From Nitrospirota bacterium (lineage in GTDB: Bacteria > Nitrospirota > 9FT-COMBO-42-15 > HDB-SIOI813): DNA of 64,000 nucleotides. The stretch covers positions 31,569 to 95,568 of the forward strand of contig JADLDG010000035.1 of NCBI GenBank assembly GCA_020846775.1. Reading direction: 5' to 3'. Shown here piece after piece: positions 23,203 to 55,736 of the stretch. Below the pieces are notes generated by a model. The model was not told where the DNA came from, searched no databases, and saw only the letters and a list, made by a program, of their open reading frames with translations. A program made the position numbers and the translations under genes. Numbering within the stretch: position 1 is the first letter of the stretch; each line of letters opens with the position of its first letter.

Positions 23203-23208
23203 AAACCT

Positions 23209-36673: not shown

Positions 36674-38755
36674 TTAATCACTATTTATTATACCTTCAAT
36701 CTTCTTCAGGAGTTCTTCCATGTTGTAAGGTTTAATAATATAATTTCCCCCGATCTTCCTGATTAATGCATCAGCCCTCCCCCCAAGCACATCACCCGTA
36801 GAAAAAAGCATCTTGTTCTCCATATACGGCTTATTTTTGCTTACCCATTCGAATACCCCTGCTCCATCTATCCCCGGCATCTTAAAATCACATATGATCA
36901 TGTCGAAATCTTCATTATTCAATTTGCTGATTGCCTCATTACCTGAATTTGCCCCTTCAACAATATATTTGTTCCCTACTATGTGTATCATTACGTCAAG
37001 CTGGTCTTCTTCATCATCAACTATCAGAATTTTCTTCAGCTTCACATCAGGAACATTAACAACTTCTTCAATAGAGGTCAGAAGAGAGTGATACACTGCA
37101 TCTTCTGCAGAAGGTATGGGCATTCGAATAGTAAATTGCGTCCTGCCGTTTTCACTGCTGGCAGTTATGTCGCCGCCATGCTCACGTATTATACCGTAAC
37201 ACAGACTGAGTCCAAGTCCGGTGCCCCTGCCAACTTCTTTGCTTGTATAGAATGGATCAAAGATTTTGCTTATAGCCTCCTTAGGTATTTCCGGTCCATT
37301 GTTAATAAATTCAATATTGATTTCATCATCCTTTACACTCGATTTAATTTCCAGAATTCCACCGGCACCCCCTTTTTCTTCAATGGCATCACAGGCATTG
37401 TTGATAATATTTACAAAGACCTGTTCAATCTGTCTTTCATCAGCAAATGTCAACGGCATAGTATCATCAAGATCTGACTTAAGGGTTATGGCAGTTGATG
37501 ACAGCCTGTAATGAAGCAGTGATATTACACTTTGCAGTATACTATTAATATTAACAGAACTTTTGTGAGGTTTATCCTGTCTTGAAAAGCGCAACAATGA
37601 TTCAACAATACGTTTTGCGCCAATTGCCGAACGATTTACGGTCTTTATCAGCTTTAATTCATTCTCCTCAAGCGATGACTGCTGGAGAAGTTCAGAATAG
37701 ACTAATATAGGGAGGAGCCTGTTATTGAGTTCATGCGCAATGCCCGAGACAAAAGTAACAAGTGAAGCGAGTTTTTCAGTCTGCAAGAGCCTTTTCTCAA
37801 GCATCTTACGCTCAGTAATATCCTTTGCCACCCCGAGTAAACCAATTATCCCCTGACCGCTGCTCCTAAGGGGGGTAAAACTGCACAATGTCTGCCATAC
37901 GGTTTCGTCCTTGCCTTTAAGATCCATCTCAAGGGTCTTCTTCCCACCCTGTTTGAGCACCTGAACAAAGGCACGTATAGCCTCCTCACTCATTAACAGG
38001 GTATCAAACACCTGACCGACAAGTTCATCCTTAGTATATCCAAGGTCCTCCACTCTTTTATTAAGGAAGATGAATCTGCCTTCATTGTCTATGGTAAATA
38101 TTATATCACTGGCGTTCTCAAAGATATTTTTCAGATATTCGTGAGACTCCTCTATTTCTTTAGTCCTCTCAATAACCGTCAATTGCAGGTGTTTGTTTAA
38201 CAGCTCAAGGTCTTTCTGAAGACGGACAAGATTTATAAGATGGCCAATAGTTGTAGAAAGAATAGAGAAGACCTTCTCATGGTGCTTACTGAAAAACTTA
38301 TGTTTACTGTGAGAAAGGTTTAACACACCCAAACACCGCCCGCCGGCAGAAACCGGCAGACAGAGTAAAGACCCTATGTCAACGGCTGATTTTAGTTTCA
38401 CAAATCTGACATCGTTATCTACATCTGATATGAGTATAGGGGCATTGTTTTTTGCAACCATACCTGCGACCCCTTCGCCTACTCTGAATGCCCTGTCATG
38501 AACCTCCTCATTCCTATCTGCCTCCGGAGGTGAAACGCCTGCCTGATTTACTACGTAATTACCACTATCATCGAGAAGCATAATTGAACAATGTTCAAGG
38601 CCAAGCTCATCAGACAGTATTTTCACAACCTCATCACATATAGACTTCACGTCGGACTTCTTATTCAGCATCGCGACAATACGCTGGAAGGCTGATAGAC
38701 TTTGCATGACGTCGCTGTAAAACTGTTGTAGTTCTGAATTAATATCCAAACTCAC
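36674..38755 (-). CDS. hybrid sensor histidine kinase (GAF-PAS-HisKA-HATPase-REC)
   Basis: N-terminal GAF. PAS region. H-box (IAHELNNRL). HATPase N/G boxes (INNACDA ... GRGTGLGLS). C-terminal receiver (KILIVDDEEDQ ... MIICDFKMPGIDG). RBS TAAGGAGTG upstream. Confidence 0.75.
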   Translation of the reverse strand: MSLDINSELQQFYSDVMQSLSAFQRIVAMLNKKSDVKSICDEVVKILSDELGLEHCSIMLLDDSGNYVVNQAGVSPPEADRNEEVHDRAFRVGEGVAGMVAKNNAPILISDVDNDVRFVKLKSAVDIGSLLCLPVSAGGRCLGVLNLSHSKHKFFSKHHEKVFSILSTTIGHLINLVRLQKDLELLNKHLQLTVIERTKEIEESHEYLKNIFENASDIIFTIDNEGRFIFLNKRVEDLGYTKDELVGQVFDTLLMSEEAIRAFVQVLKQGGKKTLEMDLKGKDETVWQTLCSFTPLRSSGQGIIGLLGVAKDITERKMLEKRLLQTEKLASLVTFVSGIAHELNNRLLPILVYSELLQQSSLEENELKLIKTVNRSAIGAKRIVESLLRFSRQDKPHKSSVNINSILQSVISLLHYRLSSTAITLKSDLDDTMPLTFADERQIEQVFVNIINNACDAIEEKGGAGGILEIKSSVKDDEINIEFINNGPEIPKEAISKIFDPFYTSKEVGRGTGLGLSLCYGIIREHGGDITASSENGRTQFTIRMPIPSAEDAVYHSLLTSIEEVVNVPDVKLKKILIVDDEEDQLDVMIHIVGNKYIVEGANSGNEAISKLNNEDFDMIICDFKMPGIDGAGVFEWVSKNKPYMENKMLFSTGDVLGGRADALIRKIGGNYIIKPYNMEELLKKIEGIINSD

Positions 38756-39011: not shown

Positions 39012-39428
39012 CTATTGTCCCACCAATTTTTCATTAAGTTCAGATAAACCATTTTTACCTTCTAAAAGAATTGGATTCAATTCATACTCTATAAGGTCCG
39101 CGAGGGTTATCCAATCCTTTCCTTCAAAGGCAGAGAGCATCTCTTTAAAGATATCAATGGATTTATTCCACGATGAAAGGGATTCTGATGAGATTTCGGA
39201 CTGTTCCAGACCATTCCTCAATTCCCTGATAAAATCCATAAGGTCGCTGAGATTGTCCATCAAGCCTGATATTTCATTAAAGACCCTCTCAGTTTGTTCA
39301 ATCCTGAGGGAATTGGCACAATCCATTAATCTGGCGCTGATCTGCCCAATACTCTCACAGGTGCTTATAATGCCATCAGTTATAGCTGTCAATAATTCCT
39401 CCCTTTTCTTAACATCTATGTTTGCCAT
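39012..39428 (-). CDS. hypothetical protein
   Basis: 138-aa acidic helical ORF. Its start overlaps the stop region of the upstream GT9-like gene (39416..39428), suggesting co-transcription with the flagellar modification island. Confidence 0.35.
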   Translation of the reverse strand: MANIDVKKREELLTAITDGIISTCESIGQISARLMDCANSLRIEQTERVFNEISGLMDNLSDLMDFIRELRNGLEQSEISSESLSSWNKSIDIFKEMLSAFEGKDWITLADLIEYELNPILLEGKNGLSELNEKLVGQ

Positions 39429-41134
39429 ACGCCTCTCCCTTCTAATGTTAAAGTGCTATTGTTGTTAAACGGTTCAATAAGCTGAATCATTGCAGAGGTC
39501 TGGATTATAAGATTCTTGTATAAGGTGCATGCTGCACTGGCTAAGACCGCTACGTCTTCGCCTTCAAGACTTTCTCTCCCGAATTTAAAGTAAATCACAA
39601 TGGGACGCAGTGCAATATTAGTAAAACCAATTATATCTATATCCTGATCAATTAGTGGTACATCTGCCCAGATATCTTTAATCTTTGCGATATCAGGATT
39701 TTCCCTCTTAGCCTCTTCCGCTATCAGGCTGACTTTTTCAAGTGCCCTCCCGGCTAATTCCTTAAGGCTCCTGAGTGCATCAATCTCATTACTAATTTCC
39801 CAACCGTTAATCCCTTCTGTCACCACTTTTGAAAAAAGGGATTTATCGGGATGATGGCGTAGCGGGGAATTCTCCGGCACAATGGAAGCAGCATTGTGAT
39901 CAAGGGTCTGCAGCCACACCAGTCTGTACAAGTGACGGAAAAAGTCTTCCCTGGTAATGGGCCTTTTGATCCTTGGTATGTACTCTAATAATCCATCATC
40001 AGAAAAGACGGCCTCATTAACCTGCATACCATCCCATAAAGGGGAGTCATCAACCTCCTTTAAACGACCATCGTTATAAAGCATCTCAATAACCCTGTAG
40101 ACACCATCCACACTGACAGTGTCATTACAGATCATGTCCTGACACTTTACATGAAAGCTGCAAGGGTGACAAGGGAGATTCGACTCTATTACTATATGTC
40201 CTTTCCCATATGGGCCGGTCTCACGGAAATAGGCCGCACCGAGGGAGATTCCTATAACCCTTGTCCCTACGGCCGTCGCAATATGCATTGTACCTGAATC
40301 GTTAGAAACAAGAAGATTACAGCACTTCAGATAGGCAGCAAGCTCCTTCAGCGATGTCTTGCCGACCATATCTATTACATCGCTTCCAACCCCCATCTTT
40401 ATTTCTTCACCCAGCGCCCTTTCGCCGCCTGAACCGAAGACTATAACCTTTGCTCCAAGCCTGCTCGTTAATTTCTTTGCAAGTTCAACATATCGTCCTG
40501 TGGCCCACATCTTATGTCTGTCACTAGCGCCCGGCTGAAATCCTATTACAAAATCACCACCGCTGACCCCCGATTTCCGTAATTGCGATTTAGCGGTATC
40601 AAAGACTTCTTCCGGGACTTCCAGAAAAAGTCCTTTTTCTTTCGGCATGGCCCCACCGGCCTTAATATATATGTCACATAGATGAAAAGGATTGTAAATC
40701 CTTCCAGGGACTATATTGAAGAAATATCTTAACCATGGATGTTTTATAAGGGAATGTCCTTTATTATCAGCAATGTATCCCCTGAACTCTTTAGAGCTGA
40801 CGAGAGACATTATGGCTGCACTCACTGTTGTATGAGTGAAGTTTATCACACAGTCATACCCGACCCTGTTTATATCCTCCAACATCTCTTCCATATACCT
40901 GTATTTGCTGACAAGACCGGGGAACTCACCACGCCCGCCCGCTATGAATCCATCCATATTGAAGCTTATGAGCCTGTCTACAAATGGGATGTAGTTACAT
41001 ATTTCGGCAAAGGCGGAGTTTATCAGCAACGTAATCCTGACATCAGTGTAGGCGTCTTTTAGACCTGCCATCACAGGGGTAGTTTGAACAAGGTCTCCCA
41101 TACGTGTAAGATTGATTATCAGGACATTTTTCAT
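39416..41134 (-). CDS. glycosyltransferase family 9 (heptosyltransferase-like) fused to a roughly 230-aa C-terminal domain of unknown function
   Basis: N-terminal NVLIINLTRMGDLVQTTPV pattern typical of GT9/RfaF-WaaC. C-terminal third has no recognisable motif. Confidence 0.5.
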   Translation of the reverse strand: MKNVLIINLTRMGDLVQTTPVMAGLKDAYTDVRITLLINSAFAEICNYIPFVDRLISFNMDGFIAGGRGEFPGLVSKYRYMEEMLEDINRVGYDCVINFTHTTVSAAIMSLVSSKEFRGYIADNKGHSLIKHPWLRYFFNIVPGRIYNPFHLCDIYIKAGGAMPKEKGLFLEVPEEVFDTAKSQLRKSGVSGGDFVIGFQPGASDRHKMWATGRYVELAKKLTSRLGAKVIVFGSGGERALGEEIKMGVGSDVIDMVGKTSLKELAAYLKCCNLLVSNDSGTMHIATAVGTRVIGISLGAAYFRETGPYGKGHIVIESNLPCHPCSFHVKCQDMICNDTVSVDGVYRVIEMLYNDGRLKEVDDSPLWDGMQVNEAVFSDDGLLEYIPRIKRPITREDFFRHLYRLVWLQTLDHNAASIVPENSPLRHHPDKSLFSKVVTEGINGWEISNEIDALRSLKELAGRALEKVSLIAEEAKRENPDIAKIKDIWADVPLIDQDIDIIGFTNIALRPIVIYFKFGRESLEGEDVAVLASAACTLYKNLIIQTSAMIQLIEPFNNNSTLTLEGRGVWQT

Positions 41135-42989: not shown

Positions 42990-43991
42990 CTAAACTATTG
43001 CTTTTGACGAAGCCCTGTTTATTATGCCTTTAAGCCCAATGGCATCACTTCTTTCGGGCTCAAACAGGAGAAGTTTATCTATGCTATCAAGTGCCTTATC
43101 AAGTTGCCCGAGCTTGAAGCTCACATCTGCATGCCGATAAAGAAAATCAGTATCAGCCGGATGATGTACCAAATACTCCTCCAGGATATCAATAGCCTTA
43201 TTGAAATCCTGGGAATCGATTGCTGACATCAGGGTATTACACATCTTTTTATTTCCAGACTTTTCTGCCTTTATCAGGTATTGAATTATAAAGAGATCTT
43301 TAAGTTCTTCATGTGACAGACCTTTCAGATTAACCCTGCCAAAGGATATCTCTCCTGAAAGAGGATCATGCAAGGAACTATAAGCAGGATCAATATTGGC
43401 AGTTATCCCTGTTATCTCATATCCAGCCTCTGTAAACAGGGATTCCATATCTTTCATCGTAAAGAATCTCAGATGGGTTCTATCGAGGATACCCGAGTCC
43501 TGATACTTCCAATGCCCTTCCACCAGCATGTTTAGAACCCCGTAATACCGTACATTCGGAATGCTTGCGACAATAGAACCAGAATCAGCAAGATAGTGTT
43601 TGAATCTCCTGAGTGTTGACAATGGTTCCTTCAGGTGTTCCAGTATGTCGGCAAATATAATACAGTCAAAATAACCATCTTCATATTGAAGTTCCAGACA
43701 CGTCACATCTCCCTTTATAACCCGTGACAGATTCTCATTTGCCCTCTTACTCGCAATTGGATCAACTTCAATACCAACAACTTCTTCAGCCCCTTTTTCC
43801 AGCAGCCTTTTCCCGAGTATACCCTCTCCGCAACCCACATCAAGAATCCTCATGGCTTCCTCGGGCACAAGAGTCTCGACTTCTTTTCTTCCCTGGCGAA
43901 AGTATTCCCTGTCAACAGTCTTATCTAATCCATTTTGCGTCTGACTCCTCGTATCGTTAATCACTTTATCTCCTGCGCTACATGGATACAT
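42990..43991 (-). CDS. class I SAM-dependent methyltransferase fused to TPR repeats
   Basis: SAM-binding motif I ILDVGCGEGILG. Motif post-I/II (DCIIFADILEHL). C-terminal TPR-like repeats. Confidence 0.6.
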   Translation of the reverse strand: MYPCSAGDKVINDTRSQTQNGLDKTVDREYFRQGRKEVETLVPEEAMRILDVGCGEGILGKRLLEKGAEEVVGIEVDPIASKRANENLSRVIKGDVTCLELQYEDGYFDCIIFADILEHLKEPLSTLRRFKHYLADSGSIVASIPNVRYYGVLNMLVEGHWKYQDSGILDRTHLRFFTMKDMESLFTEAGYEITGITANIDPAYSSLHDPLSGEISFGRVNLKGLSHEELKDLFIIQYLIKAEKSGNKKMCNTLMSAIDSQDFNKAIDILEEYLVHHPADTDFLYRHADVSFKLGQLDKALDSIDKLLLFEPERSDAIGLKGIINRASSKAIV

Positions 43992-46767
43992 AGCCTTCTA
44001 TCTGTCTTTTAAGTTCCACCGCCCCTGTCATTTCTTTATTGAACAATAAAACCTTTTCCAGATTGTCCAGCGCGGTGTCATAGTCATGAAGCTTAGAACA
44101 AACCTCCGAATATTTAATGATAATTGACAAATCAAGTGGATGTAACTCTAAATATGATTCTATTAGTCCCCTGGCGTCTGCATGCCTTCCTTCTGCAATG
44201 GTGGCATCAATCTCAGCTATCAGATCCGCTGGCTCTTCAAATGCCTTTCTGAAAAACCTGAGTGGCGCGCTATTCAACATTTCCAGACCCATTTCTTTTA
44301 CAATGTTATAAAACCCTTCGTTGGTATAACGTTCCACATTCAGATGCCATCCGGCCTCACCATTGTTATTATAAAATGAAGCAAACATAATTAAATAACC
44401 ATTAGGGTTTAAGTGTTCAATCAGGTATTTGACGGTTTTCTCCGGTTCTACCAAATGTTCAACCACATCCAGCATGATCACAACATCATATCTATTTGAA
44501 CCGAGGAAATCATCCTTGTATGCATCAATCATGTTCACATCAAGGCATCTCCTTCCAAACCGCCATTTTGCATAATTGAAGGTCTTGCCGGGGATATCTG
44601 CATAATTAAGTCGTATGTCACTTATCCTGGACAGATTGATGATCTGACTCCCTATCCCGCCGCCAAAATCAAGAATGTCAAGCTTTCCACGTTCAGAGGA
44701 GACTTGCCGACAAAATCTGGTTATCTCATCAATCCCCTGCATATACATGGGATTCTCATAATTGTATTGGACCAGATCATAGAGATATGAATCCGTATTG
44801 ATGTAAAACTCGTTGACCTTTTCCTGGGTCAGAATGCATTTAGAGATGTCACCCCAATCTTTAATCTGTTGGTCATAAACACACCTTATACGACTTATAA
44901 CCTCATCAACATCTACGCCGGTATAACGTGCCAATTCCTGGACCGCTCCTCTAAAAGAGGACTGTACCAGTTCTTCAAAAAGAAGACTGAACTTCTGGGC
45001 TATCTTTTGTGAGTCAAATTCATTAATAGCCCGCTCCCTTCCTTTTATACACAACTCTTTTTTTAATGTGTCATCTTTCAGAAGATTTATAATCGCAGAA
45101 GAAAGTCCTCTCGGATCATTGGATTGAACAAGTATTCCTGCATCACCCACCACCTCCGGAATAGAGCCGGAATAAGTTGAGATAACTGGAAGACCGCAGG
45201 CCATAGCCTCTGTCAAAACCATTCCGAACTGTTCCTTCCATGTTCTTGTAGAAATACTTGGAAGAACAAATATATCGGCCATGTTAAACATTTCATGCAT
45301 TCTGTGGTAAGGGTAGCCCTCTATAAATGTAAACATTGAGCCGACTCCAAGCTCCTCAACCCTGCTTTTAATCCCAGCTGATTCAGATCCTTTTCCAATG
45401 ACTACAAACCTGAAGTGAACATCCTTAACACTATCCTCCTGGGTAACCAATTTTGCAGCGTATAGCAGGTCATAGATACCCTTTTCCCAGACTATTCTTC
45501 CTGTAAACAACACAACTCGCTCCTCTTTGCCGATACCAAATTCTTTTCTTAACCTCCATCTTGCCTCGTTATCCGGCCTGAACCTGTTTACATCAATTCC
45601 CATTGGAATGACAGTTATCTTGTCTTCCGGTACCCCTTCTATGATCAGGGCATCTTTTGCTCTTTCGGTCACGGCAACAAAGTGATCCACCATCTGCCGG
45701 TTAAACCGCTTCATCTCTCTCATCTGCTCATCTTCCTCGTAGGCGAAGGGGATATTTTCCCATTCGAGAGCAATGATCCTCTTTCCAAATTTTTGTTTCA
45801 TAACTGCTGCCTGATATGTAAATATCCAGGTAATATCAGCTGTATAAATAATATCCTTATCGAGGAGTTCTGCCTCAAGGCCTATCATATAGGCAGGGTT
45901 TTGAGGATGGGGAGGAAGTTTAACAACAGGAAGAGTAATATGGGATAGATCAAAACTTGATTGAGTTGTCGTATAAGAAGTTATGTCAAATGTTTTGTAC
46001 AGAGGTTCATAATTCTGCATCTCCCAGTGATTAAGATTAGGCCCCCTTAATATCGCAACCCTGGGACGTTCAGACATCTTTTCAGAAGTATATGGTGGAA
46101 CCCAACGGCTAACCATAGTCCTAAGCGGCCTGACCTGGACATCATATTCCCTGTAAAAAAGTTCTTCCGGATTATTGAAACCACTTTCTTCCATTTGTGA
46201 ATATTGCTCACTTTTTTTCCAATACTTTTCCTTATCCAGGAAACCATAATGTACAACGTATGCATCCCAGTGTTTGTCTAATCCATCGTAAGGTTTCGTC
46301 AATAGTTCATGTAACTGCCCCTCCCATTTGACCTCCTTGCGGTTACGCCAAATCCTCGGAATATTTTCATAATCATCAGCTCCCCTGGAATAATACTTTT
46401 CATTTCCAATGAGATTACACTGACGGATGAAATAACCGGTAGTGTCTCCCGGAGTTGATTCAAGCAGGGTTCTTATATTTTCTTCGAAGTACTGCGAAAA
46501 TGCCTCATCTGCATCAAGGCGCACCACCCAGTCACCTGTGCAATTGTCAAGAGAGATCTGCCGCTGCTTCCCAAAATGGCCTTCCCATATATGTTGAATC
46601 AACGTAACATTCCGGTAAGACCTGAGTATTTCCAGCGTGCCATCAGTACTGCCACCATCAACAACTACGATCTCGTCGGCAAATGTACATGAGCTCAACG
46701 CCCTTGCAATATTCTTTTCCTCATTCATTGTAATCATCGAAACGGAAATCTTCATAACTTCCTCCAA
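43978..46767 (-). CDS. multidomain glycosyltransferase: GT2 - GT4(GT1-fold) - SAM methyltransferase - TPR (929 aa)
   Basis: N-terminal GT-A (ISVSMITMNEEKNI ... VVDGGSTDGT ... DADE). Central GT-B/GT4 segment (VLFTGRIVWEKGI ... EQFGMVLTEAMACGLPVI). C-terminal SAM MTase motif I (ILDFGGGIGSQ ... MLDVVEHL). TPR tail. Confidence 0.6.
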   Translation of the reverse strand: MEEVMKISVSMITMNEEKNIARALSSCTFADEIVVVDGGSTDGTLEILRSYRNVTLIQHIWEGHFGKQRQISLDNCTGDWVVRLDADEAFSQYFEENIRTLLESTPGDTTGYFIRQCNLIGNEKYYSRGADDYENIPRIWRNRKEVKWEGQLHELLTKPYDGLDKHWDAYVVHYGFLDKEKYWKKSEQYSQMEESGFNNPEELFYREYDVQVRPLRTMVSRWVPPYTSEKMSERPRVAILRGPNLNHWEMQNYEPLYKTFDITSYTTTQSSFDLSHITLPVVKLPPHPQNPAYMIGLEAELLDKDIIYTADITWIFTYQAAVMKQKFGKRIIALEWENIPFAYEEDEQMREMKRFNRQMVDHFVAVTERAKDALIIEGVPEDKITVIPMGIDVNRFRPDNEARWRLRKEFGIGKEERVVLFTGRIVWEKGIYDLLYAAKLVTQEDSVKDVHFRFVVIGKGSESAGIKSRVEELGVGSMFTFIEGYPYHRMHEMFNMADIFVLPSISTRTWKEQFGMVLTEAMACGLPVISTYSGSIPEVVGDAGILVQSNDPRGLSSAIINLLKDDTLKKELCIKGRERAINEFDSQKIAQKFSLLFEELVQSSFRGAVQELARYTGVDVDEVISRIRCVYDQQIKDWGDISKCILTQEKVNEFYINTDSYLYDLVQYNYENPMYMQGIDEITRFCRQVSSERGKLDILDFGGGIGSQIINLSRISDIRLNYADIPGKTFNYAKWRFGRRCLDVNMIDAYKDDFLGSNRYDVVIMLDVVEHLVEPEKTVKYLIEHLNPNGYLIMFASFYNNNGEAGWHLNVERYTNEGFYNIVKEMGLEMLNSAPLRFFRKAFEEPADLIAEIDATIAEGRHADARGLIESYLELHPLDLSIIIKYSEVCSKLHDYDTALDNLEKVLLFNKEMTGAVELKRQIEGYVSM

Positions 46768-46777: not shown

Positions 46778-48460
46778 TCAGGAATAGCGCTTCTTCATGC
46801 TGTCAATCAGCATCTTTATCCGGTGGACATACGTATGTTCCCTCGAGATCCTTTCTCTTCCACATTCCGATATTCGCTTTCTTTCCTGAGAATTGTTCAG
46901 ATAAAACTTTAAAAGTCCCGGTATCTCCTCCCTGTTTTTATAGGTTATAACCTCTTTCCCTATATCAAAGAGATCACCTAACGCATCCTGATCATCAGTC
47001 AATAGAAATGCACCACATGCCGGGACATCAAAGACCCGCTGATTAACGGCGCTACCCATCTGCAGATTAGTAGCGTTGAAATTTATCTTGCAGGCATTGT
47101 AAAAGCGGGGAAGTTCACTGTAATAGTTTAACGGAGGCCTGATATTGAAATCTCTGCTTAAGAGTTCATGCCAGCCTTTATCCCCGTAAACCCTCGGACT
47201 GTATTCTTTAAGTCTTTCTATGCAAGAGAGTCTGTATATAAGTGTTGATCTCCAGAGAACAGCGGCCTCAAGATCAAGCCTCTCCTGAACAGGAAGGGCT
47301 CTTACTTTTTCTTGCTCATCATTATTCAACATTCTCAATAATTCATCGAAAGACAGATGAGAGGAACCAAGGCGCTGCGATAACCTTTCAGTAATAGAGC
47401 GCAATTTCACTGGTACCTTTTTCAGCTTTTCTGCTGCCGGTTCGACCATAGAGTTGCCTACAAAACCTATGACTGTATTGAATCTGTTTTTATCCTTCTG
47501 ACTTAAATTTAAAGGTTTAAAGACATCAGTGTCCGCTGCAAGTGGCAGGTATTCAACTAACTCAAAACCCATAGCCTTCATATCGTTTATATATCCCTTA
47601 TCCCATAAATAAAGTGAGACATATGGAGATACATTTTTTTCAAAGGCCTTGACTATAAGATTCGGGCTGTCAACATACCACGATGCCACAGGCATCTCAA
47701 TTGATTTTAAAAAAGATGTCAAGACCCCGTCTTCATCAAAGCCAAGATGGTTAATGGTGAGGAGGAAATCCGGTTTGAATTCAAGGATGGTACTCAACAT
47801 GCGCGATACAATGGCCTCCCCATCTTCTCCCTTCTTTAAAGGAACTTTTACGACCTCTTGACCAAGGCGTTTAATAGCGTCTGCCACCTCGGAGGTCAGG
47901 AAATAGCCATAATCTATAAAGGCGATCTTAGTCTTTTCCTCCTTAAACCTTGGGTATCTGAGCCTTTCCCAGAGCCTGACTGATGTTGTGTTTTTTAAGG
48001 AGATAAGGATAGGATTATAGTAGTCTGGCATGGCTGAAACGACCGGAGCCAGGGGAAAGGAGGCAACAGAAGGCATTCCAGACGTTAACTGATACCTGGT
48101 AATCTCTCTTATAGCCGCATCAGAAGTGACTCCGATTATGAATCTAACCCTATCTTCGATCTCTCCCATCCTACCATATTCCTTTGCCAGTCCATACATC
48201 TCATGACTTGATTCAACCACAATAATCCTGGCCTCCGGAAACCTGCGGACAAGCTCCATCAGATGATAACCAAGCCCCAATCCTAATACCACTAATAGCC
48301 CTTTCCCATCAAAATAAAAGGCATCTGCAATTGCCCTGGCTTCTGCCTCGGGGTCATAGAGGCTGTGAAGTGTTTTTAAAGAGCCGTCTTCATACGTAAC
48401 CCTTATTGAATAACTGCCATTTTTCGTTTCTACTAAGGAATGATTATTGATAACAGACAC
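46778..48460 (-). CDS. Maf-like (DUF115) - CgeB-like putative glycosyltransferase, paralog of 41138..42952
   Basis: HSLYDPEAEA and VVLGLGLGYH N-terminal motifs. C-terminal CgeB-like region. Same architecture as the first paralog. Confidence 0.5.
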   Translation of the reverse strand: MSVINNHSLVETKNGSYSIRVTYEDGSLKTLHSLYDPEAEARAIADAFYFDGKGLLVVLGLGLGYHLMELVRRFPEARIIVVESSHEMYGLAKEYGRMGEIEDRVRFIIGVTSDAAIREITRYQLTSGMPSVASFPLAPVVSAMPDYYNPILISLKNTTSVRLWERLRYPRFKEEKTKIAFIDYGYFLTSEVADAIKRLGQEVVKVPLKKGEDGEAIVSRMLSTILEFKPDFLLTINHLGFDEDGVLTSFLKSIEMPVASWYVDSPNLIVKAFEKNVSPYVSLYLWDKGYINDMKAMGFELVEYLPLAADTDVFKPLNLSQKDKNRFNTVIGFVGNSMVEPAAEKLKKVPVKLRSITERLSQRLGSSHLSFDELLRMLNNDEQEKVRALPVQERLDLEAAVLWRSTLIYRLSCIERLKEYSPRVYGDKGWHELLSRDFNIRPPLNYYSELPRFYNACKINFNATNLQMGSAVNQRVFDVPACGAFLLTDDQDALGDLFDIGKEVITYKNREEIPGLLKFYLNNSQERKRISECGRERISREHTYVHRIKMLIDSMKKRYS

Positions 48461-49973
48461 CCTTTGCTAAAATCTCATCTATTTTATTTAATTCCGAAGT
48501 AACTCTGTTGAGGGATTCCGCCTCCAGGTAATACGCTCCTATAGCATCACCCACAGTCATAGCATATATTTTATAAATACATGCTACAAAGTCTTCCTCC
48601 CGGCCGGATAACGTATTATGTCTGGCCAAAAGATATTCGGAAAACTGATTAAGGTAGTTCATGATATTCGGGATCAATATATTCTGTTTAAAATTATACA
48701 TATTTTGGGGGGAGCGAACGGCATTTTCAAACAACATAGAATACAAAATATTCAGGCCCTCGTCTCCCTGTATTCTCATTCTTTTCAAACCTTTTTCTAT
48801 CCCGTCAGGATGCTTATTTATATTCTTCTGAATAGCACTTAGTAGTGATTTTAATGCTGTCATGGGATTGCTGTTCACGGGGTTAGACTCAGAAATTGAG
48901 AGGTTAATAAGGTTATAGGTACCAATAATCACAGCTACTAACTGGTCCCAGGTAATGTTATATCTTGAAAATAAATAGGGCAGTTCGTTTTGCAAAGTAT
49001 GAACATTGGCCTTTGAACCTATACTATGCCGTTTTAATACGTCAACCGCACCCCTTTCATGCCAATGATAAACGCCCGTTGAATTTAAGTAGCCGATAAC
49101 CTTACGTTTGTGCAGGAGTTTTACACCAAAGTCAATATCCTCTGCATTCATCATGGGGGTGAATTTGACCTCTCCAAATATATCCCTTCTCACACATGAT
49201 GAAACGTTGTCAAAGAATGTCAGCCTCCTTTTCGTAGCCCCATCAAATGCCCTCAGGCCTATTCCCCCAATGTCCATCAAGAGGGTGTACATGGAGTCCT
49301 GCTCAAACCCCAGTATTGTACCCAGCAATTCATTCTTCCATAAACTGAAGAGGTCAGCTTCAGGTTTAACAAACTGCTTTGACGAAAGGGCAGCTAATCG
49401 CGGGTATTCGATTAATGGGCATACCATGTTGTAAAGCCAATAATTATTGATAGGAAGAGCGTCTTGCACTGTAAAGACGAGGTAATCACCTGTCGCTTTT
49501 GCAGCCCCTGTATTTCGGGTCATACCATGATTGAATTCCTTCTGAGGGATATCTATAATTACCGCTCCGAACCCGGCAGCTATCTCTTTTGAATTGTCTG
49601 AAGATCCAGAATCGATCACAATAATTTCTATATCATTTACCTTTCTCTGAGACCTTATCATACCGAGTAAACCCTTTAATTTCTCTCCGCCATTATTGAC
49701 CGGTATAATAACTGAGACTTTATCCGCTATGGCAGACGGCCTTGTTCTTACATCAATTGGCGTTATCTCAAAGAGCAGACTCAATGCATTCCGCAGGGAA
49801 TCATCTTTTTCGACCAGTTTATTGCTCAAATCGGATATCGTACGTTCTGCAGCCATTACTTTCTTTAGATATCTTGTGGCTGCTTCATGTTTTTCCTTGA
49901 ATATGCGACTGGCACATTCCAGGGCCCATTCCATCTCCCGCACTTTGTCTTTTATCACCATATCATTTTGCAT
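48444..49973 (-). CDS. family 2 glycosyltransferase with N-terminal coiled coil and C-terminal unknown domain
   Basis: GT-A motifs VSVIIPVNNGGEKL ... IIVIDSGSSDNS ... DxD-like VQD. Confidence 0.55.
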   Translation of the reverse strand: MQNDMVIKDKVREMEWALECASRIFKEKHEAATRYLKKVMAAERTISDLSNKLVEKDDSLRNALSLLFEITPIDVRTRPSAIADKVSVIIPVNNGGEKLKGLLGMIRSQRKVNDIEIIVIDSGSSDNSKEIAAGFGAVIIDIPQKEFNHGMTRNTGAAKATGDYLVFTVQDALPINNYWLYNMVCPLIEYPRLAALSSKQFVKPEADLFSLWKNELLGTILGFEQDSMYTLLMDIGGIGLRAFDGATKRRLTFFDNVSSCVRRDIFGEVKFTPMMNAEDIDFGVKLLHKRKVIGYLNSTGVYHWHERGAVDVLKRHSIGSKANVHTLQNELPYLFSRYNITWDQLVAVIIGTYNLINLSISESNPVNSNPMTALKSLLSAIQKNINKHPDGIEKGLKRMRIQGDEGLNILYSMLFENAVRSPQNMYNFKQNILIPNIMNYLNQFSEYLLARHNTLSGREEDFVACIYKIYAMTVGDAIGAYYLEAESLNRVTSELNKIDEILAKGVCYQ

Positions 49974-49984: not shown

Positions 49985-51319
49985 TTACGCCAGAAAGGTA
50001 TCATTGATCATTATGGATTCTAAAAAGTCATAATCCACATTTCTAACCTTTGGAGCCATCGCACCTCTATCACTCAAAGACTCTGTATTGTCATCTCCAA
50101 CAATGAGGTTATTGGTTTTATAAAAGTCATATAATGCGCTTCCAGGGACCGGGGTATAAAAGGCAGGGGAAAAATGGACAGGTTTGACCCGTAAAACACC
50201 TTCAACAGTCATCAGATCATCTTCTTTGTGCCATCCGGTATCTGTTGGTATACCAAGGATATAGTTTGCCCAGACCTTTACACCATGTTTATGACAAATC
50301 TCCGCTGCCTTGAAGTTTTGATCTACCGTAACCCCTTTATTGAACCACTTCAATACCCTCGGGCTGAATGACTCAAATCCTACTATCAATAAGAGAAGAC
50401 CTGCAGCTGCCATATCCCCTATGAGTTTATCATTTTTACATATGTTATCAGCCCTGCTTGATGTGACCCATTTAAGACCATATTTCACGATTCCGCTGGA
50501 ATGAAGGGCAGTTATGAACTCTTCAACCCATTTTGGAGATACTATGAACTGATCATCATGGAACATAACGGATTTAATGCCATACCTGTCTATCAGCATC
50601 TTCAGTTCAGCTATGACATTTGACACGCTTCTCCCCCGAATATAAGTTTTTCGAGTCCCGTTTTCTCTTAATTTCGTATAGAGCTGATGCTCTCCAGGCC
50701 CACAACAGAACTTGCATGTATAAGGACATCCCCTTACGTTGATCATCTCAGCCATAGGTAAGGGAAACCTGAAACCAGTTAATCCAAATGGTTCGGAAAA
50801 CATTCTCCTTTTAAAGTCCGGCCAAATTTCCCTTTCCGGGAATGGGATCGTATCAAGATCCGGAGTTTCACCCCAAAAGCATTTAGGGAACATAGACGGA
50901 TCTTCTACCAATTCCACGAAGCTGATTTCTCCTTCACCCTGGATAACATAATCGAAATTGCCGCTATCAATGCACTCCTGCGGGAACATGGTTGGGTGAA
51001 CTCCGCCAGCGACCACAATTACCCCTGGTAAGACCTCTTTGGCTCTTTTGGCAGCTTCCAGAGCTATAGAATATTCTACAGAATGTATGGATATTCCTAT
51101 GAACTCCGGAGAGATAGCCTTTACAACCTGTTCATATTCACTCCAACCTGACAATGTCCTTAAGTCAGCAAGATGAACATCGTGCCCCCTTGCCTTTAAC
51201 GACCCTGCCAGATATGCAAGACCAAGGCGAATGAATGTTGTATCTGGTGATGGTTTGCTTATGTCCGCATTCCATGTGCTATATGCTATTGATGGATTAA
51301 CCAGTAAGACCTTTGCCAT
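49985..51319 (-). CDS. B12-binding domain radical SAM protein (class B rSAM)
   Basis: N-terminal cobalamin-binding-like Rossmann segment. CxxxCxxC cluster motif (CPYTCKFC). Confidence 0.65.
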   Translation of the reverse strand: MAKVLLVNPSIAYSTWNADISKPSPDTTFIRLGLAYLAGSLKARGHDVHLADLRTLSGWSEYEQVVKAISPEFIGISIHSVEYSIALEAAKRAKEVLPGVIVVAGGVHPTMFPQECIDSGNFDYVIQGEGEISFVELVEDPSMFPKCFWGETPDLDTIPFPEREIWPDFKRRMFSEPFGLTGFRFPLPMAEMINVRGCPYTCKFCCGPGEHQLYTKLRENGTRKTYIRGRSVSNVIAELKMLIDRYGIKSVMFHDDQFIVSPKWVEEFITALHSSGIVKYGLKWVTSSRADNICKNDKLIGDMAAAGLLLLIVGFESFSPRVLKWFNKGVTVDQNFKAAEICHKHGVKVWANYILGIPTDTGWHKEDDLMTVEGVLRVKPVHFSPAFYTPVPGSALYDFYKTNNLIVGDDNTESLSDRGAMAPKVRNVDYDFLESIMINDTFLA

Positions 51320-51353
51320 TTGAAGCCTCCATTAAAGAAGTAATTGAATATTT

Positions 51354-52988
51354 TCATTCCAATTGACCGGAATGCTCCCTGCACTCTTTAAATGACCTTA
51401 ATCCGCTTCCCCTGATGAGTTTTATTGTCTCTATTCTTTTAGGTGTCAGCCATGCATCCCTGACAGACATCTCTGTTATATTTGCTTCTGGCTTATCCCA
51501 GGCACCGGCTTCGCATGGGCAAAGCACCACGTCACCATCCGTTGTTATCGCCATCTCATTTTCTATGAAATAGCACAGATTGAAATTTGGCACCTCTTGT
51601 GAGACTTCAGCATCCATTTCCCCTCCTCTTATCCTGTATGCCGGGAACTGAACCTTATTAATGCCCAATTTTTCAAAATAATCTGTAAATTCCTTTCTAC
51701 TTTCAGACATGGTTAGAGGGAGTTGAATCTTTGTCACCCATACATCAGTTTTTGAGTTAAGTCGTTCTCTTATGGAGAGGAAGTTTTTAATATTAGTTAA
51801 AACTACATCAAGATCCAGACCCCGTCTTATCCTTTTGTATAAATCTTTATTCAATGTATCTATAGAAAATACGACAATATCAACATTTCCATCCAATAAC
51901 TGATTTGCCTTATACGTATCCAATAAATATCCAGGCGTCGCTATCCAGTTTTCAAATCCAAGTTTTTTTGCTCTCTTCATAAACCTGTATATCCTGTCGT
52001 CATACAATGGATCATTAATCCACTCCCAGTTTATTTTACACTTCCAGTCAACTTCATCAAAGATTTTATCAACCAGCCTCTCTGGCATCAATTTGTTTTT
52101 TCGTTTTTTTAAAACCATTTTCCTGGGACACATCAAACAACTCGAGGGACATCCAATAGCTGTTTCGAGAGAAAAATATGTGGGCAGCAAAATAGATTTA
52201 TCCAGAATATCCGCACAATCCTCCGAATTAGTACACTTATTGAAAGTATCTGCCTCGTCCTGAGTTAGTCTGATCTTTGAATTATCAGTTTTGATAAAAT
52301 ATCTGTCTTCAACTTGCCTGTCATCTTTCGTCTTATATGCAATGCTTACTTCATGGATACCATCTATCAGAACCAGCGTATTTATGTAAAACCTAAATCC
52401 GCTGCAGCTTGAGTTATTTATGTCGGGATAGATCAATGCGACATCATCCCTCTGCAACCCATATTCTGCCCGCAACAAGTGCCTGCCATCAACATATACT
52501 TCGATAGATCCAATGCCTGTAATGGATATCGCCCATCCTTCAAAGCGCTTGATACCCTGAAGAGGTTGGAGCAATTCCGGCAAATCAAGATGTCTGTGAA
52601 CATTCTCCTCAATTTCAAAATCCTTGTAAATTTTCTTGCATATTTCACGGAGATTAATTGTAGCCTCCGAATATGCAGGGGCCAAATCCAGCGCCTTTGT
52701 GAACTGAAATATTGCATCTATAGACTTTCCTTTAATAAATAAACACGCCCCGTAATTATTTCTTATCTCCGGATTATCCGGATACCTCTCTGTCAAATAC
52801 CCAAATATCCTTTCTGCCTCATCAAATAATCCTGATCCATATTTCCCCATGGCTTGTTCCATCAAGGTAAAATCCTCTGAATTGATATTAAGACCTGCCC
52901 TATGACTGTTGTCTAACATGAGTAAACGACTCCAAATGGTATCTTCTTGACTCCCGCCGCAGTTTAGACGCAGAGGAGTGACTGACAT
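51354..52988 (-). CDS. TPR - radical SAM / SPASM-like domain protein
   Basis: N-terminal TPR. CxxxCxxC motif (CPSSCLMC). C-terminal Cys-rich auxiliary-cluster-like segment (CYFIENEMAITTDGDVVLCPCEAG). Confidence 0.55.
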   Translation of the reverse strand: MSVTPLRLNCGGSQEDTIWSRLLMLDNSHRAGLNINSEDFTLMEQAMGKYGSGLFDEAERIFGYLTERYPDNPEIRNNYGACLFIKGKSIDAIFQFTKALDLAPAYSEATINLREICKKIYKDFEIEENVHRHLDLPELLQPLQGIKRFEGWAISITGIGSIEVYVDGRHLLRAEYGLQRDDVALIYPDINNSSCSGFRFYINTLVLIDGIHEVSIAYKTKDDRQVEDRYFIKTDNSKIRLTQDEADTFNKCTNSEDCADILDKSILLPTYFSLETAIGCPSSCLMCPRKMVLKKRKNKLMPERLVDKIFDEVDWKCKINWEWINDPLYDDRIYRFMKRAKKLGFENWIATPGYLLDTYKANQLLDGNVDIVVFSIDTLNKDLYKRIRRGLDLDVVLTNIKNFLSIRERLNSKTDVWVTKIQLPLTMSESRKEFTDYFEKLGINKVQFPAYRIRGGEMDAEVSQEVPNFNLCYFIENEMAITTDGDVVLCPCEAGAWDKPEANITEMSVRDAWLTPKRIETIKLIRGSGLRSFKECREHSGQLE

Positions 52989-53065: not shown

Positions 53066-53461
53066 TCAGATGCTTATGCTTATAGTGGAGCCATTCTGAT
53101 TACATTTATTATGACGGGAAAATAATTTAAAGTTCTCAAGAACACTTATCTGGTCCAATAAAGAAGCCATTTCTAACTGAAGTGTATTCTTCATCTCATT
53201 GTTACGGGTCAGAATTTTCTCGATGTTTATAACCATCTCCCTTGAACCATTATTACGGTGATTATGGGCCTCCTCATTCAATGGGAGTAACTGTGTATTC
53301 ATTACTTCTCTGTCAATATTTTGGATGTCATCAATAATTCTCTGACGTTTTTCGAGTATTTCTAACGCCTCATCAAACCTTTCATCCCGAAGTGCATTTA
53401 ACTGATCCTCTGCCAGTCCAAGCAGTTTTTTGTACAGACTTAAGACTCTTTCACTACTCAT
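53066..53461 (-). CDS. putative flagellar export chaperone FliT-like protein
   Basis: 131-aa helical protein immediately after fliS (4-nt overlap), in the fliD-fliS-fliT position of Bacillus-type operons. No diagnostic motif. Confidence 0.3.
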   Translation of the reverse strand: MSSERVLSLYKKLLGLAEDQLNALRDERFDEALEILEKRQRIIDDIQNIDREVMNTQLLPLNEEAHNHRNNGSREMVINIEKILTRNNEMKNTLQLEMASLLDQISVLENFKLFSRHNKCNQNGSTISISI

Positions 53462-53874
53462 ACCCTCAACTCCATCCCTGCAGAAACTGCCTCTTTTGGA
53501 ATATTAACAATGTTATTCTTGCCAATATCTTTCCATGCAGATCGTAATACCTCGAGGACCTTAACAGCATCGTCAAGCGCTTTTTCGTCGTTCTTCATAT
53601 TGGCTGTTATTAATCTGTCTAAGACAAAATCATAGAGCCTGCTCAGATTTTTAGCGATCTCCCCGCCTGCCTCCATGTTGATCGAGCTTAATAGCTCCCC
53701 AACCACTGAGGAAGCCTTTCCTATATAAAGCCCCTTACCTGCGATGTCACCAAGCTCTATTCTCTTCCTTGCAACCTTGATAAAATTGATGGCCCCATCA
53801 TACATCAGGGAAATGACTTTTACACTATCGGAAGTATTCACTTCTGCCTTCCTGTAATCTGACACTTGTTGCAT
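53458..53874 (-). CDS. fliS: flagellin-specific chaperone FliS
   Basis: VISLMYDGAINFIKVA pattern. 138 aa. Position after fliD. Confidence 0.8.
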   Translation of the reverse strand: MQQVSDYRKAEVNTSDSVKVISLMYDGAINFIKVARKRIELGDIAGKGLYIGKASSVVGELLSSINMEAGGEIAKNLSRLYDFVLDRLITANMKNDEKALDDAVKVLEVLRSAWKDIGKNNIVNIPKEAVSAGMELRV

Positions 53875-53895
53875 GTTATATACCTCCCGATTATT

Positions 53896-55293
53896 TTACT
53901 GTGAATTCCATTTTGTAATCTGATTATTCAGAAATGTCCCCTGAGAAGTCAGTCCATTTAGCAGTGATTCCAATGCCGAAAATCGTCTCCGCAGATCATC
54001 TTCTACTTTCACCAATCTTGTTTCAAGAGAAGTTATATTACTTGCAATATTATTGACAACAGATTGAAGACCGCTTTTCCTTATGGTCAGAGCTCCGTCG
54101 GTTGATTTTGTGATAGTGTCAGCGTAACTCCATATCTGATTGGCTATGCCGGTAGTGGCAGTTGCAAATAGTTTGGACACATCGTCAATCCTAGCTGAAA
54201 GCTTGTCGCTCAATGTCGTGCTGTTAATCGTTAGTGTCCCATCCTTTGAGTTAGTAGTTATGCCTATCCCTGCGAGTGAATCTACATCAGATGAAGCAGC
54301 TGAAACCGTGCCTATTACCATTGCCTTCATGCTTCTAACCACATCCCTTGCCGTCGCATCACCGAGTAAGGGACCTCCAGTCTTGGTAGTGCTGTCCCAT
54401 GAAGACTTCGAAGCGGCATAATTTATAGCATTGTTATATGCCGTTACAAAGTCCTCGATCTTTTTCTTTATCGAGTCTGTATCATTTGTAACCGCAACAG
54501 TAGCAGAGCTTGTAGATTCCTTTTTAAGGGTAAGGGTTAAACCTGATATTACACCTGATACGTTATTTGAACTGCTTGTAATGTCAATGCCGTTAATCCT
54601 GAGTTTGGCATCCTGGGCGGTCTGATTAGTGGTAAAGGCGCTGCCGGTTAAATCTACTGTACTGCCTGTGCCATCCAGGGTTGTTCCGGAATCGATACTG
54701 ATAGTCTTTGTGCTGCCGCTATCATTACCGGTTAGCGCCAGCTTGTAAACAGAACCATCATATATTATTGTAGCATTAACCCCGGGATTACCAGAGTCGC
54801 TATTGATAAGGTCCCTAAGTCCCTCAAGAGTAGTTCCGTCTGCGACGGTGATGGAACTCTGGGAGCCTGCATAGGTATATTGAAATATTTTATCAGAGCC
54901 GCTGCTGTTAACGCTTGTATTGATGGCAGCAGTCCCAGCAGTATGCGATTTCTGCTCTGACTGGGCGAGCTGTATCTTACCTGCGGTGGAATGAGATGCT
55001 ATCGTATAGCTCCCGGCAGGTGCAGAGTTCGTAGCCGATGCATCAAGGATAGTGCTATCACTGACTGATGCCTTTTTTGCAAAAAAGTTGGATGTTGTCC
55101 TCAATTCATCAGCAGCAGTCTTTAATGACAAGATCTTTGATTGAAAGTCACTATAAGCCGTTATTTTATCGTTGTAGGCCGTCTGTTTGCTTTGAAGCAG
55201 GGTCACCGGACGACGCTCCAACTCCATCAGCTTGGTTATTATATCATTTGCGTTAATGCCGGAACTAAGACCGGAAACAGAAAAAGTAGACAT
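53896..55293 (-). CDS. fliD: flagellar filament capping protein FliD
   Basis: N-terminus SGLSSGINANDIITKLMELERRP is a typical FliD sequence, with a C-terminal coiled coil. 465 aa. Confidence 0.85.
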   Translation of the reverse strand: MSTFSVSGLSSGINANDIITKLMELERRPVTLLQSKQTAYNDKITAYSDFQSKILSLKTAADELRTTSNFFAKKASVSDSTILDASATNSAPAGSYTIASHSTAGKIQLAQSEQKSHTAGTAAINTSVNSSGSDKIFQYTYAGSQSSITVADGTTLEGLRDLINSDSGNPGVNATIIYDGSVYKLALTGNDSGSTKTISIDSGTTLDGTGSTVDLTGSAFTTNQTAQDAKLRINGIDITSSSNNVSGVISGLTLTLKKESTSSATVAVTNDTDSIKKKIEDFVTAYNNAINYAASKSSWDSTTKTGGPLLGDATARDVVRSMKAMVIGTVSAASSDVDSLAGIGITTNSKDGTLTINSTTLSDKLSARIDDVSKLFATATTGIANQIWSYADTITKSTDGALTIRKSGLQSVVNNIASNITSLETRLVKVEDDLRRRFSALESLLNGLTSQGTFLNNQITKWNSQ

Positions 55294-55323
55294 CCATTAC
55301 ACCCCTTCATCCTGAAAAACAAT

Positions 55324-55698: not shown

Positions 55699-55704
55699 GT
55701 AAAT

Positions 55705-55736
55705 ATGGGGACGGCACTGTTGGCAGGCCGCCCCCA
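55705..55736 (-). terminator. putative rho-independent terminator downstream of flagellin gene
   Basis: Minus-strand ggggcggcctgccaacagtgccgtcccc forms an imperfect GC stem followed by atattt. It is conspicuously GC-rich and lies about 30-60 nt after the fliC stop. Confidence 0.4.

Follow-up and report, generated by a model that had tools for sequence, protein, structure and literature searches.

A candidate flagellin-glycan enzyme that joins two glycosyltransferases, a methyltransferase and a TPR-like tail in a flagellar gene cluster of Nitrospirota

What is the function of a single polypeptide that joins two glycosyltransferases (GTs), a methyltransferase (MT) and a short tail that resembles tetratricopeptide repeats (TPRs), when its gene lies in an island that directly follows the genes for flagellin? 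The question is raised by a 64,000-nucleotide (nt) stretch of DNA from a Nitrospirota bacterium (GenBank assembly GCA_020846775.1, contig JADLDG010000035.1, forward-strand positions 31,569 to 95,568); this whole stretch is the window in the following. Most studies of flagellin glycosylation concern pathogens whose systems rely on sialic-acid-like sugars and on Maf or FlmG transferases; the locus described here points to a different chemistry, that is, to ordinary sugars in environmental anaerobes and to a GT of the GmaR/SunS type that is wired to an extending GT and a methyltransferase. Very probably the fusion protein belongs to a pathway of flagellin glycosylation that operates without sialic-acid-like sugars. 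From sequence, structural models and analogy with characterized enzymes, we further favor, with some reserve, its assignment as a four-module enzyme, soluble and cytoplasmic, by which a flagellin glycan is primed, extended and methylated.

A conserved four-module fusion

The gene and its modules are as follows (aa, amino acids; SAM, S-adenosylmethionine):

43978..46755, minus strand: fusion gene GT2-GT4-MT-TPR, 925 aa; stop codon 43978-43980; identical to NCBI MCC6544055.1
46081..46755, minus strand: module 1, GmaR/SunS-like GT2 (GT-A), residues 1-225; D33, D38 and DxD D81/D83, with R134, H149-E150 and HYGFL 169-173 as C-terminal signature
44956..46068, minus strand: module 2, retaining-type GT4 (GT-B), residues 230-600; EX7E motif E508...E516
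44236..44955, minus strand: module 3, class I SAM methyltransferase 'MT-A', residues 601-840; motif I LDFGGGIG (D696, G698, G700, G702)
43981..44232, minus strand: module 4, five-helix minimal TPR-like tail, residues 842-925; signature E.YL..HP.D...L....K.LLF

In the six-frame list of open reading frames (ORFs), the minus-strand ORF 43978..46767 is uninterrupted. An earlier reading of this DNA, made from its letters and ORFs (the sequence-only reading), gave the protein 929 aa; this length comes from the mechanical TTG start at 46767. Judged from the sequence, the likely start is the ATG at 46755, which is four codons downstream and is preceded by GGAGG; the public protein, labeled 'MAG: glycosyltransferase [Nitrospirota bacterium]' and encoded by a 108.7-kb contig, exactly matches the resulting product.

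The sequence-only reading had described three catalytic domains in one ORF, and a Pfam scan bears out the GT2, the GT4 and the class I SAM methyltransferase (domain E-values from 1e-8 to 1e-38); the overall anatomy of GT-A, GT-B, methyltransferase and TPR tail is also correct according to Pfam, the AlphaFold model and a tail profile. Residue conservation was read from an alignment of 20 full-length relatives with 45-86% identity to the fusion protein. The GT4 module is a standard retaining GT-B: it is matched by the Pfam pair PF13439 (residues 276-391) and PF00534 (residues 399-573) with 130.3 bits against a cut-off of 26.4; in its EX7E motif all homologs have E508 and at least 90% have E516; and Foldseek gives template modeling (TM) scores of ~0.8 against BshA, MshA, HepE and PimB'. 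Its best NCBIfam matches are polysaccharide and thiol-sugar enzymes (HpsO, stp2, BshA), all far under their cut-offs. In the AlphaFold model, the methyltransferase module has a helical N-terminal extension of ~90 residues (601-689) followed by a Rossmann core; it is recognized by PF08242 (residues 695-788, 34.4 bits, cut-off 30), PF13489 (32.8 bits, cut-off 27) and PF08241 (26.2 bits, cut-off 21.2), and D696, G698, G700 and G702 of motif I are invariant.

Scanned alone, the tail falls under every TPR threshold of Pfam (TPR_14, 20.9 bits, cut-off 23.5; TPR_19, 18.8 bits, cut-off 25). The tail of the neighboring gene product, which passes TPR_19 (29.6 bits), is 40% identical to it over 53 aa (E 1e-10); the AlphaFold model contains five helices at residues 842-924; and a profile built from 26 tails, used in an exhaustive search of 1.84 billion cluster representatives, retrieved 3,687 representatives at E<=1e-10; a Pfam scan of 55 of these identified every one as a canonical TPR protein, 38 of them with a GT-B domain in addition. 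(A word-indexed search with the same profile returned 2 matches and missed the known family; the exhaustive search was used in its place.) Because the identity to the neighbor's tail, the five-helix model and the profile agree, we assign the tail as TPR-like at the level of profile and predicted fold. Among the homologs it is found after MT-A, MT-B (the methyltransferase type of the neighboring gene) or GT4 modules and also in fusions of a B12-binding radical-SAM (rSAM) enzyme with a methyltransferase; the tail is thus a mobile module. Two further ideas about the tail were dropped or weakened. It is not a recurrent tag on other proteins of the window, where its hidden Markov model (HMM) matches the fusion protein and its neighbor only and the N-terminal TPR of a radical-SAM protein is unrelated; and a novel address tag specific to this family is made less plausible by the occurrence of the same terminal unit at the end of long canonical TPR arrays on many GT-B proteins.

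The fusion is a real, conserved gene. In a search of 5.8 billion proteins, its full-length relatives, found in assemblies of NCBI, JGI, ENA and Logan and labeled mostly as Nitrospirae or Nitrospirota, have 920-938 aa and are 52-88% identical at 99-100% coverage. When the best 120 matches were classified with HMMs of the modules, GT2-GT4-MTA-tail and GT2-GT4-MTB-tail were each found in 23, that is, at least 46 of the 120 share the GT2-GT4-MT-tail plan; more than 20 further arrangements occur (e.g., GT4-MTB-tail, MTB-GT4-tail, MTB-tail-GT4-tail, GT2-GT4-tail and GT2-GT4-MTB-MTA-tail). The sequence-only reading had named a frameshift or sequencing error as what could undo the fusion, and an assembly or frameshift artefact that joins separate genes is scarcely credible: although the window derives from a metagenome-assembled genome, and although in close relatives a 1-nt insertion or deletion (indel) at the downstream junction toggles between fused and separate states, such an origin is ruled out by the same architecture, at 925-929 aa, in dozens of independent assemblies, and both the conservation of the inter-domain segments in the alignment of relatives and the confident, compact AlphaFold model of the full-length protein argue in the same direction (predicted local distance difference test, pLDDT, 86.4; predicted TM score, pTM, 0.81). 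In the plasmid collection, tblastn with the fusion protein gave no match above 27% identity and none covering at least 80% of the protein; a scan of the genome collection gave at least two close relatives among the matches listed, together with many loci with ~30%-identical GT2 and GT4 proteins that we used as a negative control (see below). The statement that these modules are usually encoded separately overstates the rarity of the arrangement; GT-MT and GT-GT-MT fusions have been documented (PMC5207246, PMC11231755).

The first module and the flagellar setting

The most informative point about the protein, which the sequence-only reading overlooked, is the identity of its first module: on the evidence of sequence and model, it belongs to the GmaR/SunS/ThuS protein-directed subgroup of GT2 enzymes. 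The characterized members of this subgroup all glycosylate a protein or peptide side chain directly; for the module described here a protein acceptor is predicted. PF00535, the family of inverting GT-A enzymes, matches residues 4-131 (71.7 bits, cut-off 23.3); all 20 homologs keep D33, D38 and, in the DxD motif (RLDADE), D81, and at least 90% of them keep D83. In sequence, the nearest solved relative is GmaR, the GT domain of which (residues 11-189) aligns with residues 3-182 (E 5e-13, 30.6% identity), and the second match in the PDB is SunS (E 9e-9, residues 3-153); generic GT2 structures align only over the nucleotide-binding first ~88 residues. The fusion protein, GmaR and SunS have 24 residues in common, and 19 of these, including R134 and H149-E150 on the acceptor side, are invariant or nearly so in the family. 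An AlphaFold model of the GT2 module alone (pLDDT 89.5, pTM 0.86) matches GT-A structures; its top six Foldseek matches are SunS/ThuS S-glycosyltransferases (E 8e-14 to 9e-13, TM 0.60-0.68, root mean square deviation, rmsd, from 2.7 Å), which are ~4 logs ahead of the seventh, TarS (E 7e-10, rmsd 8.8 Å). GmaR-like GT2 modules also adjoin flagellin genes in loci of Anaerovibrio, Eisenbacteria and Acidobacteriaceae; the match of the second GT2 of the island (509 aa) to GmaR is limited to the generic N-terminal half.

All genes from 63.9 kb down to 39.0 kb of the window are on the minus strand. They are, in order, flgA, flgH, flgI, a gene for a rod-binding protein, flgM, flgN, flgK, flgL, csrA, fliW, flagellin, flaG, fliD, fliS, a FliT-like ORF and the island; from the fliS side the island contains, in addition to the fusion gene, the genes that follow the first two entries of this list:

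55764-56618, minus strand: flagellin, 284 aa; core residues 141-200 are 27% Ser/Thr
53066..56618, minus strand: flagellin-flaG-fliD-fliS and the FliT-like ORF (131 aa), directly upstream of the island
49985..52988, minus strand: two radical-SAM genes, TPR-rSAM-SPASM (51354-52988) and then B12-binding rSAM (49985-51319)
48444..49973, minus strand: generic GT2 glycosyltransferase, 509 aa
46778..48460, minus strand: 560-aa protein with a weak Maf N-domain match (22.1 bits), DUF3880 and Glyco_trans_1_2 (CgeB-like); the fusion gene follows
42990..43964, minus strand: neighboring gene, 324-aa methyltransferase 'MT-B' with the same TPR tail; motif LDVGCGEG; GTG start; identical to MCC6544054.1
41138..42952, minus strand: 604-aa protein with Maf_flag10_N (PF20157, 34.8 bits), DUF3880 and Glyco_trans_1_2
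39416..41134, minus strand: GT9, heptosyltransferase-like, 572 aa, with a C-terminal extension of ~230 aa
39012..39428, minus strand: 138-aa helical protein, DUF8042 (PF26154) by correspondence in relatives; always directly after the GT9 gene in related loci

The genes of the island are spaced by -17 to +77 nt. Its proteins have no plausible transmembrane segments, so that all of them look soluble, and domain scans found no transporter, flippase, polymerase, ligase, polyprenyl-phosphate GT or oligosaccharyltransferase in it.

The flagellar setting implied by the sequence-only reading holds: flagellin, flaG, fliD and fliS directly precede the island, and this arrangement is kept in related loci. 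The homologous fusions that it had suggested seeking in other flagellar loci exist (loci L083 to L087), and the related loci with the flagellar island are of the Nitrospirota and Desulfobacterota type. The arrangement of the window recurs in L087/L083, and its downstream half in L084 and L085; a more divergent one (L086, 44% identity, MT-B type) has flagellin-flaG-fliD-fliS, an island with the fusion, Maf-like, GT9 and DUF8042 genes, and PilZ-MotA-MotB, the last of which is found downstream of the island in L083-L086. The contig of P0007 carries flgH through flagellin, fliS and the island to MotAB in one cluster. As a control for co-occurrence, 86 loci were searched with the island and flagellar proteins of the window: Maf-like genes are present in all eight loci of the tail family, as are GT9 and DUF8042 where the contig reaches, and none of the 78 loci with only ~30%-identical GT2/GT4 relatives carries the island gene set.

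Proposed function, rivals and characterized analogues

The direct support for a function is the real fusion with its intact catalytic motifs, the conserved flagellar context, the kinship of the GT2 module to protein-directed GTs and the soluble proteins of the island; from these we infer the flagellin acceptor, the order of the steps, the donor sugars, a sugar as the target of methylation and the partner of the tail. Before flagellin is exported, the GT2 module would move the first sugar from a uridine diphosphate (UDP)-sugar donor directly to Ser/Thr of the short, Ser/Thr-rich variable core of this protein; the GT4 module would then attach a second, α-linked sugar; the class I SAM methyltransferase would O-methylate the glycan, possibly as a cap; and the two-repeat TPR tail, which is also present on the adjacent methyltransferase and on paralogous island enzymes, would tether the enzyme to its protein substrate or to partner enzymes. 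The two Maf-N/CgeB-like GTs, the 509-aa GT2, the GT9, the second methyltransferase and the two radical-SAM enzymes could further extend or modify the glycan. The 'methylated disaccharide' of the sequence-only reading is not readable from the sequence; the final glycan is probably larger than a disaccharide, because the island has six GT modules, two SAM-MT modules and two radical-SAM enzymes.

Several observations weigh against this assignment. The GT2 module scores 40.6 bits against the NCBIfam equivalog for SunS (TIGR04195), far below the cut-off of 350, so the fusion protein is only a distant relative and not an ortholog of SunS. Other candidate priming enzymes are present in the island, namely the two Maf-N proteins and the GT9, and the GT2 module could for this reason act on a sugar acceptor. 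No dedicated genes for sugar-nucleotide synthesis, including that of pseudaminic acid (Pse) or of legionaminic acid (Leg), were found in the island. The closest solved relatives of the methyltransferase module, the O-methyltransferases StiD/StiE, are weak matches (E 3e-4) that do not define the substrate class. The tail has the length of about two TPR repeats, far shorter than the flagellin-binding TPR domains of FlmG (~300 aa) and Maf-1 (~270 aa). Finally, we found no literature on flagellin glycosylation in Nitrospirota and no biochemistry or mass spectrometry on this protein family.

The main rival is that another enzyme of the island, a Maf-N/CgeB-like GT or the GT9, primes flagellin, so that the GT2 and GT4 modules of the fusion only extend the glycan and the methyltransferase modifies it; we judge this improbable, although it is a serious contender. 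Two proteins of the Maf_flag10_N type (the 604-aa one with 34.8 bits) are conserved beside the fusion in every related locus, some related loci also contain canonical MptE-like Maf-TPR proteins, and in Clostridioides difficile type B strains one enzyme (GT1) primes and a GT-MT fusion (GT2) extends (PMC5207246). However, only the GT2 module of the fusion, among all GTs of the island, matches GmaR, SunS and ThuS across the whole domain including the acceptor side, whereas the Maf-like proteins have no MptE-like/DUF115 catalytic domain and no solved sequence relative. It is very unlikely that the acceptor is not flagellin at all, that is, that the enzyme acts on a lipopolysaccharide (LPS) core, an exopolysaccharide, a glycolipid or another flagellar or pilus protein and that its position in the cluster is incidental or reflects co-regulation. 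The placement between fliS and PilZ-MotAB is kept in several lineages, down to 44% identity, and the association with the flagellar island is absent from the loci with only distant GT2/GT4 relatives; the absence of the transporter, flippase, polymerase, ligase and polyprenyl-phosphate GT from an island of soluble-looking proteins and the GmaR-like character of the GT2 module also speak against it. In its favor, LPS and polysaccharide synthesis typically involves GT4 and GT9 enzymes (the NCBIfam matches of the GT4 module, HpsO, stp2 and BshA, being below their cut-offs), and in one genome the fusion is ~40 kb from the flagellin gene, though beside motAB.

The same weighing applies to the other two modules. 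Lysine methylation of flagellin is known in Salmonella and Shewanella, and the homology of the methyltransferase module leaves its substrate class undefined; the module might, like FliB in Salmonella, methylate the flagellin protein itself (e.g., its lysines) rather than a sugar. We consider this quite unlikely: a FliB-type lysine methylase is unsupported by the domain scans, in which neither Pfam nor NCBIfam gives a FliB-family match in the fusion protein; the nearest relatives are small-molecule O-methyltransferases (StiD/StiE, and UbiG of NCBIfam with E 9e-9 and 34.9 bits, below the cut-off of 103); and the covalent link of the module to two GTs recalls the GT2-MT fusion of C. difficile, which has been connected with methylated rhamnose (PMC5207246). 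For the tail, the sequence-only reading had proposed targeting to flagellin and the FliS export complex. Docking to flagellin by TPR has experimental precedent in FlmG and Maf-1, the TPR domains of which are necessary and sufficient for flagellin binding (PMC7591256; bioRxiv 10.1101/2023.12.03.569772); no link to FliS or the export complex was found, and that target is disfavored because in Aeromonas the glycosylation of flagellin precedes chaperone binding (PMC4065374). Instead, the tail may serve oligomerization or act as a scaffold that brings the enzymes of the island together in one complex, or it may cap the domain before it structurally, an option that we doubt and yet keep in view: the tail has only about two repeats, several different enzymes of one locus carry it (twice in some proteins, e.g., MTB-tail-GT4-tail), the pTM of the whole chain (0.81) suggests that it packs on the rest of the protein, and multi-module O-antigen enzymes form complexes through dedicated interaction elements (PMC11231755). 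The flagellin-binding precedents of FlmG and Maf-1 stand against this option, and the interchangeable position of the tail after MT-A, MT-B or GT4 means that it is not part of any single catalytic fold.

Each element of the proposed priming, extending and methylating enzyme, and its overall logic, is already known from characterized analogues, so that concepts remain unchanged. GmaR, the flagellin O-GlcNAc (N-acetylglucosamine) transferase of Listeria monocytogenes and antirepressor of MogR, has a GT domain of ~180 aa that puts GlcNAc on flagellin, followed by a TPR domain that its authors propose to recognize flagellin (PMC9638930). The two proteins share a GT2 domain that is homologous over its full length, including the DxD and acceptor-side motifs, as well as TPR repeats and a tie to flagellin (PMC9638930); GmaR, however, continues after its one catalytic module with a long TPR, then a linker and the antirepressor domain, and contains neither a GT4 nor a methyltransferase, whereas the fusion protein has no antirepressor domain and its TPR of about two repeats is separated from the GT2 by two enzymes. 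SunS and ThuS, the best structural matches to the GT2 module, glycosylate peptide side chains directly, as is proposed here, but they S-glycosylate cysteine in bacteriocin precursors, are not flagellar and have no GT4 or methyltransferase modules. The GT2 of C. difficile type B flagellin (CDR20291_0242) is a fusion of a PF00535 GT and a PF08241 methyltransferase that is linked to methylated rhamnoses (PMC5207246). Likened by its domain description, it too is a GT-MT fusion in a flagellin locus that is proposed to add and methylate glycan sugars (PMC5207246); it has two modules instead of four, with no GT4 and no reported TPR tail, and it extends GlcNAc primed by the separate GT1.

FlmG and Maf-1 also join a catalytic GT to TPRs and act in the cytoplasm before export (PMC7591256; bioRxiv 10.1101/2023.12.03.569772; PMC4065374), but they transfer nonulosonic acids (Pse or Leg) from cytidine monophosphate (CMP)-sugars with one catalytic module and a long TPR (about 270-310 aa). 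Membership of the fusion protein in the Maf family was considered and is unsupported by the domain scans: in Pfam the protein has no MptE-like/DUF115 domain (PF01973), and the Maf N-terminal domain is found only in neighboring genes; lacking the MptE-like domain, it is not a Maf protein. Multi-module O-antigen enzymes (of the WbdA/WbdD type, or ORF6 of Klebsiella pneumoniae O7, in which a methyltransferase-kinase terminator and two GT modules form one polypeptide; PMC11231755) likewise combine several GT modules with a methyltransferase in one chain, and in them methylation is a chain-end modification (PMC11231755). They differ in acting on undecaprenyl-linked glycans at the membrane, with export by ATP-binding cassette (ABC) transporters and coiled-coil rulers, none of which is seen here. 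We found no characterized enzyme that joins a GmaR/SunS-type GT-A, a GT4, a methyltransferase and a TPR tail.

If the proposal is confirmed, the fusion protein would interest glyco-engineering as a compact and soluble enzyme by which a defined methylated glycan is built on a cytoplasmic protein, and its family would illustrate, with an example from nature, the diversification of surface glycans through modular fusion and fission. A bolder version, which we regard as tentative and rather unlikely as a whole, is that of a self-contained, one-polypeptide synthase that primes, extends and caps the flagellin glycan, is docked by a minimal TPR tail and belongs to a combinatorially shuffled family. 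The GT2, GT4, two methyltransferase types, radical-SAM and tail modules, with their more than 20 arrangements, would in that case form a combinatorial toolkit in which modules are fused, split and reordered; such a toolkit would diversify the flagellar glycans of Nitrospirota and Desulfobacterota-like bacteria without nonulosonic acids, sometimes by a single-base indel at a junction, as between the window and a close relative (P0001).

Neighboring genes and the downstream junction

The neighboring gene was described by the sequence-only reading as a second methyltransferase-TPR protein, and Pfam agrees (a methyltransferase with a TPR_19 tail). It was also said that the start of the large gene overlaps this neighbor by 14 nt. 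The fusion gene is read from the minus strand; 43978 thus marks its 3' end, and the end that faces the neighbor is this one and not the start. The overlap requires that the neighbor start at the ATG at 43991, and a protein with this start is not in the public protein collection; the product from the GTG at 43964, with AGGAG 5 nt upstream and inside the spacer, is public as MCC6544054.1, so there is probably a 13-nt gap.

In the close relative P0001 (88% identical to the fusion protein), which is found on five contigs from JGI and ENA, the two genes are a single ORF for a 1255-aa protein, GT2-GT4-MTA-tail-MTB-tail. When the DNA of the window (43960..43995) is aligned with that of this relative (locus L081, 12780..12800), the junctions differ by a one-base indel in a short run of C that fuses the neighbor in frame to the fusion gene, that is, two genes (925 and 324 aa) become one ORF. 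Another relative (P0002, 86% identical) ends as the fusion protein does in the window. The fused and the separate state are each present in independent assemblies; the indel is a natural fusion/fission polymorphism in progress.

The remaining genes of the island allow several observations. The two Maf-N/DUF3880 (YkvP_N)/CgeB-like proteins are paralogous, flank the fusion in every related locus and have no NCBIfam match; for the 604-aa protein, no solved structure is related in sequence. They could represent a class of flagellin glycosyltransferases, as yet undescribed, without the canonical MptE-like catalytic domain of Maf. The GT9 protein, which is present in the island of every related locus, has 3tov as its best PDB match (E 1e-20) and suggests heptose on flagellin or a protein heptosyltransferase; TibC/AAH is the kind of protein heptosyltransferase to which it might be compared. 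The DUF8042 protein, on which we found no literature, precedes the PilZ-MotAB genes; in size and helicity it resembles the GlfM-type adaptors that bridge Maf-2 to flagellin, a resemblance that is one of shape and not of demonstrated homology. The B12-binding rSAM enzyme is of a type typical of C- or P-methylases, and in L083 (12756..15716) a B12-rSAM is fused to an MT-B and a TPR tail; radical-SAM chemistry on flagellin or its glycan would be unusual. The 509-aa GT2 matches TAL-effector repeats in the PDB (E 5e-12; residues 316-349); this was rejected as a scoring artefact against a repetitive target, in which one stretch of ~34 aa accumulates score, no stretch passes alone and neither the DNA nor the protein contains a repeat.

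On the flagellin side, the FliT-like ORF (53066..53461, minus strand, 131 aa) overlaps the end of fliS by 4 nt and matches FliT below threshold (19 bits, cut-off 29.5), and L087 has a second FliS paralog inside its glycosylation island (12569..12934); both may serve modified flagellin as additional, dedicated chaperones or adaptors. Signaling genes surround the flagellar region, all on the minus strand: a PilZ protein and a GGDEF cyclase (7514..9276), a group of CheW, response-regulator-GGDEF and CheA (22070..26376) and a GAF-PAS hybrid histidine kinase (36674..38755) that directly follows the island on its downstream side; these suggest that motility is under the control of cyclic di-GMP and chemotaxis.

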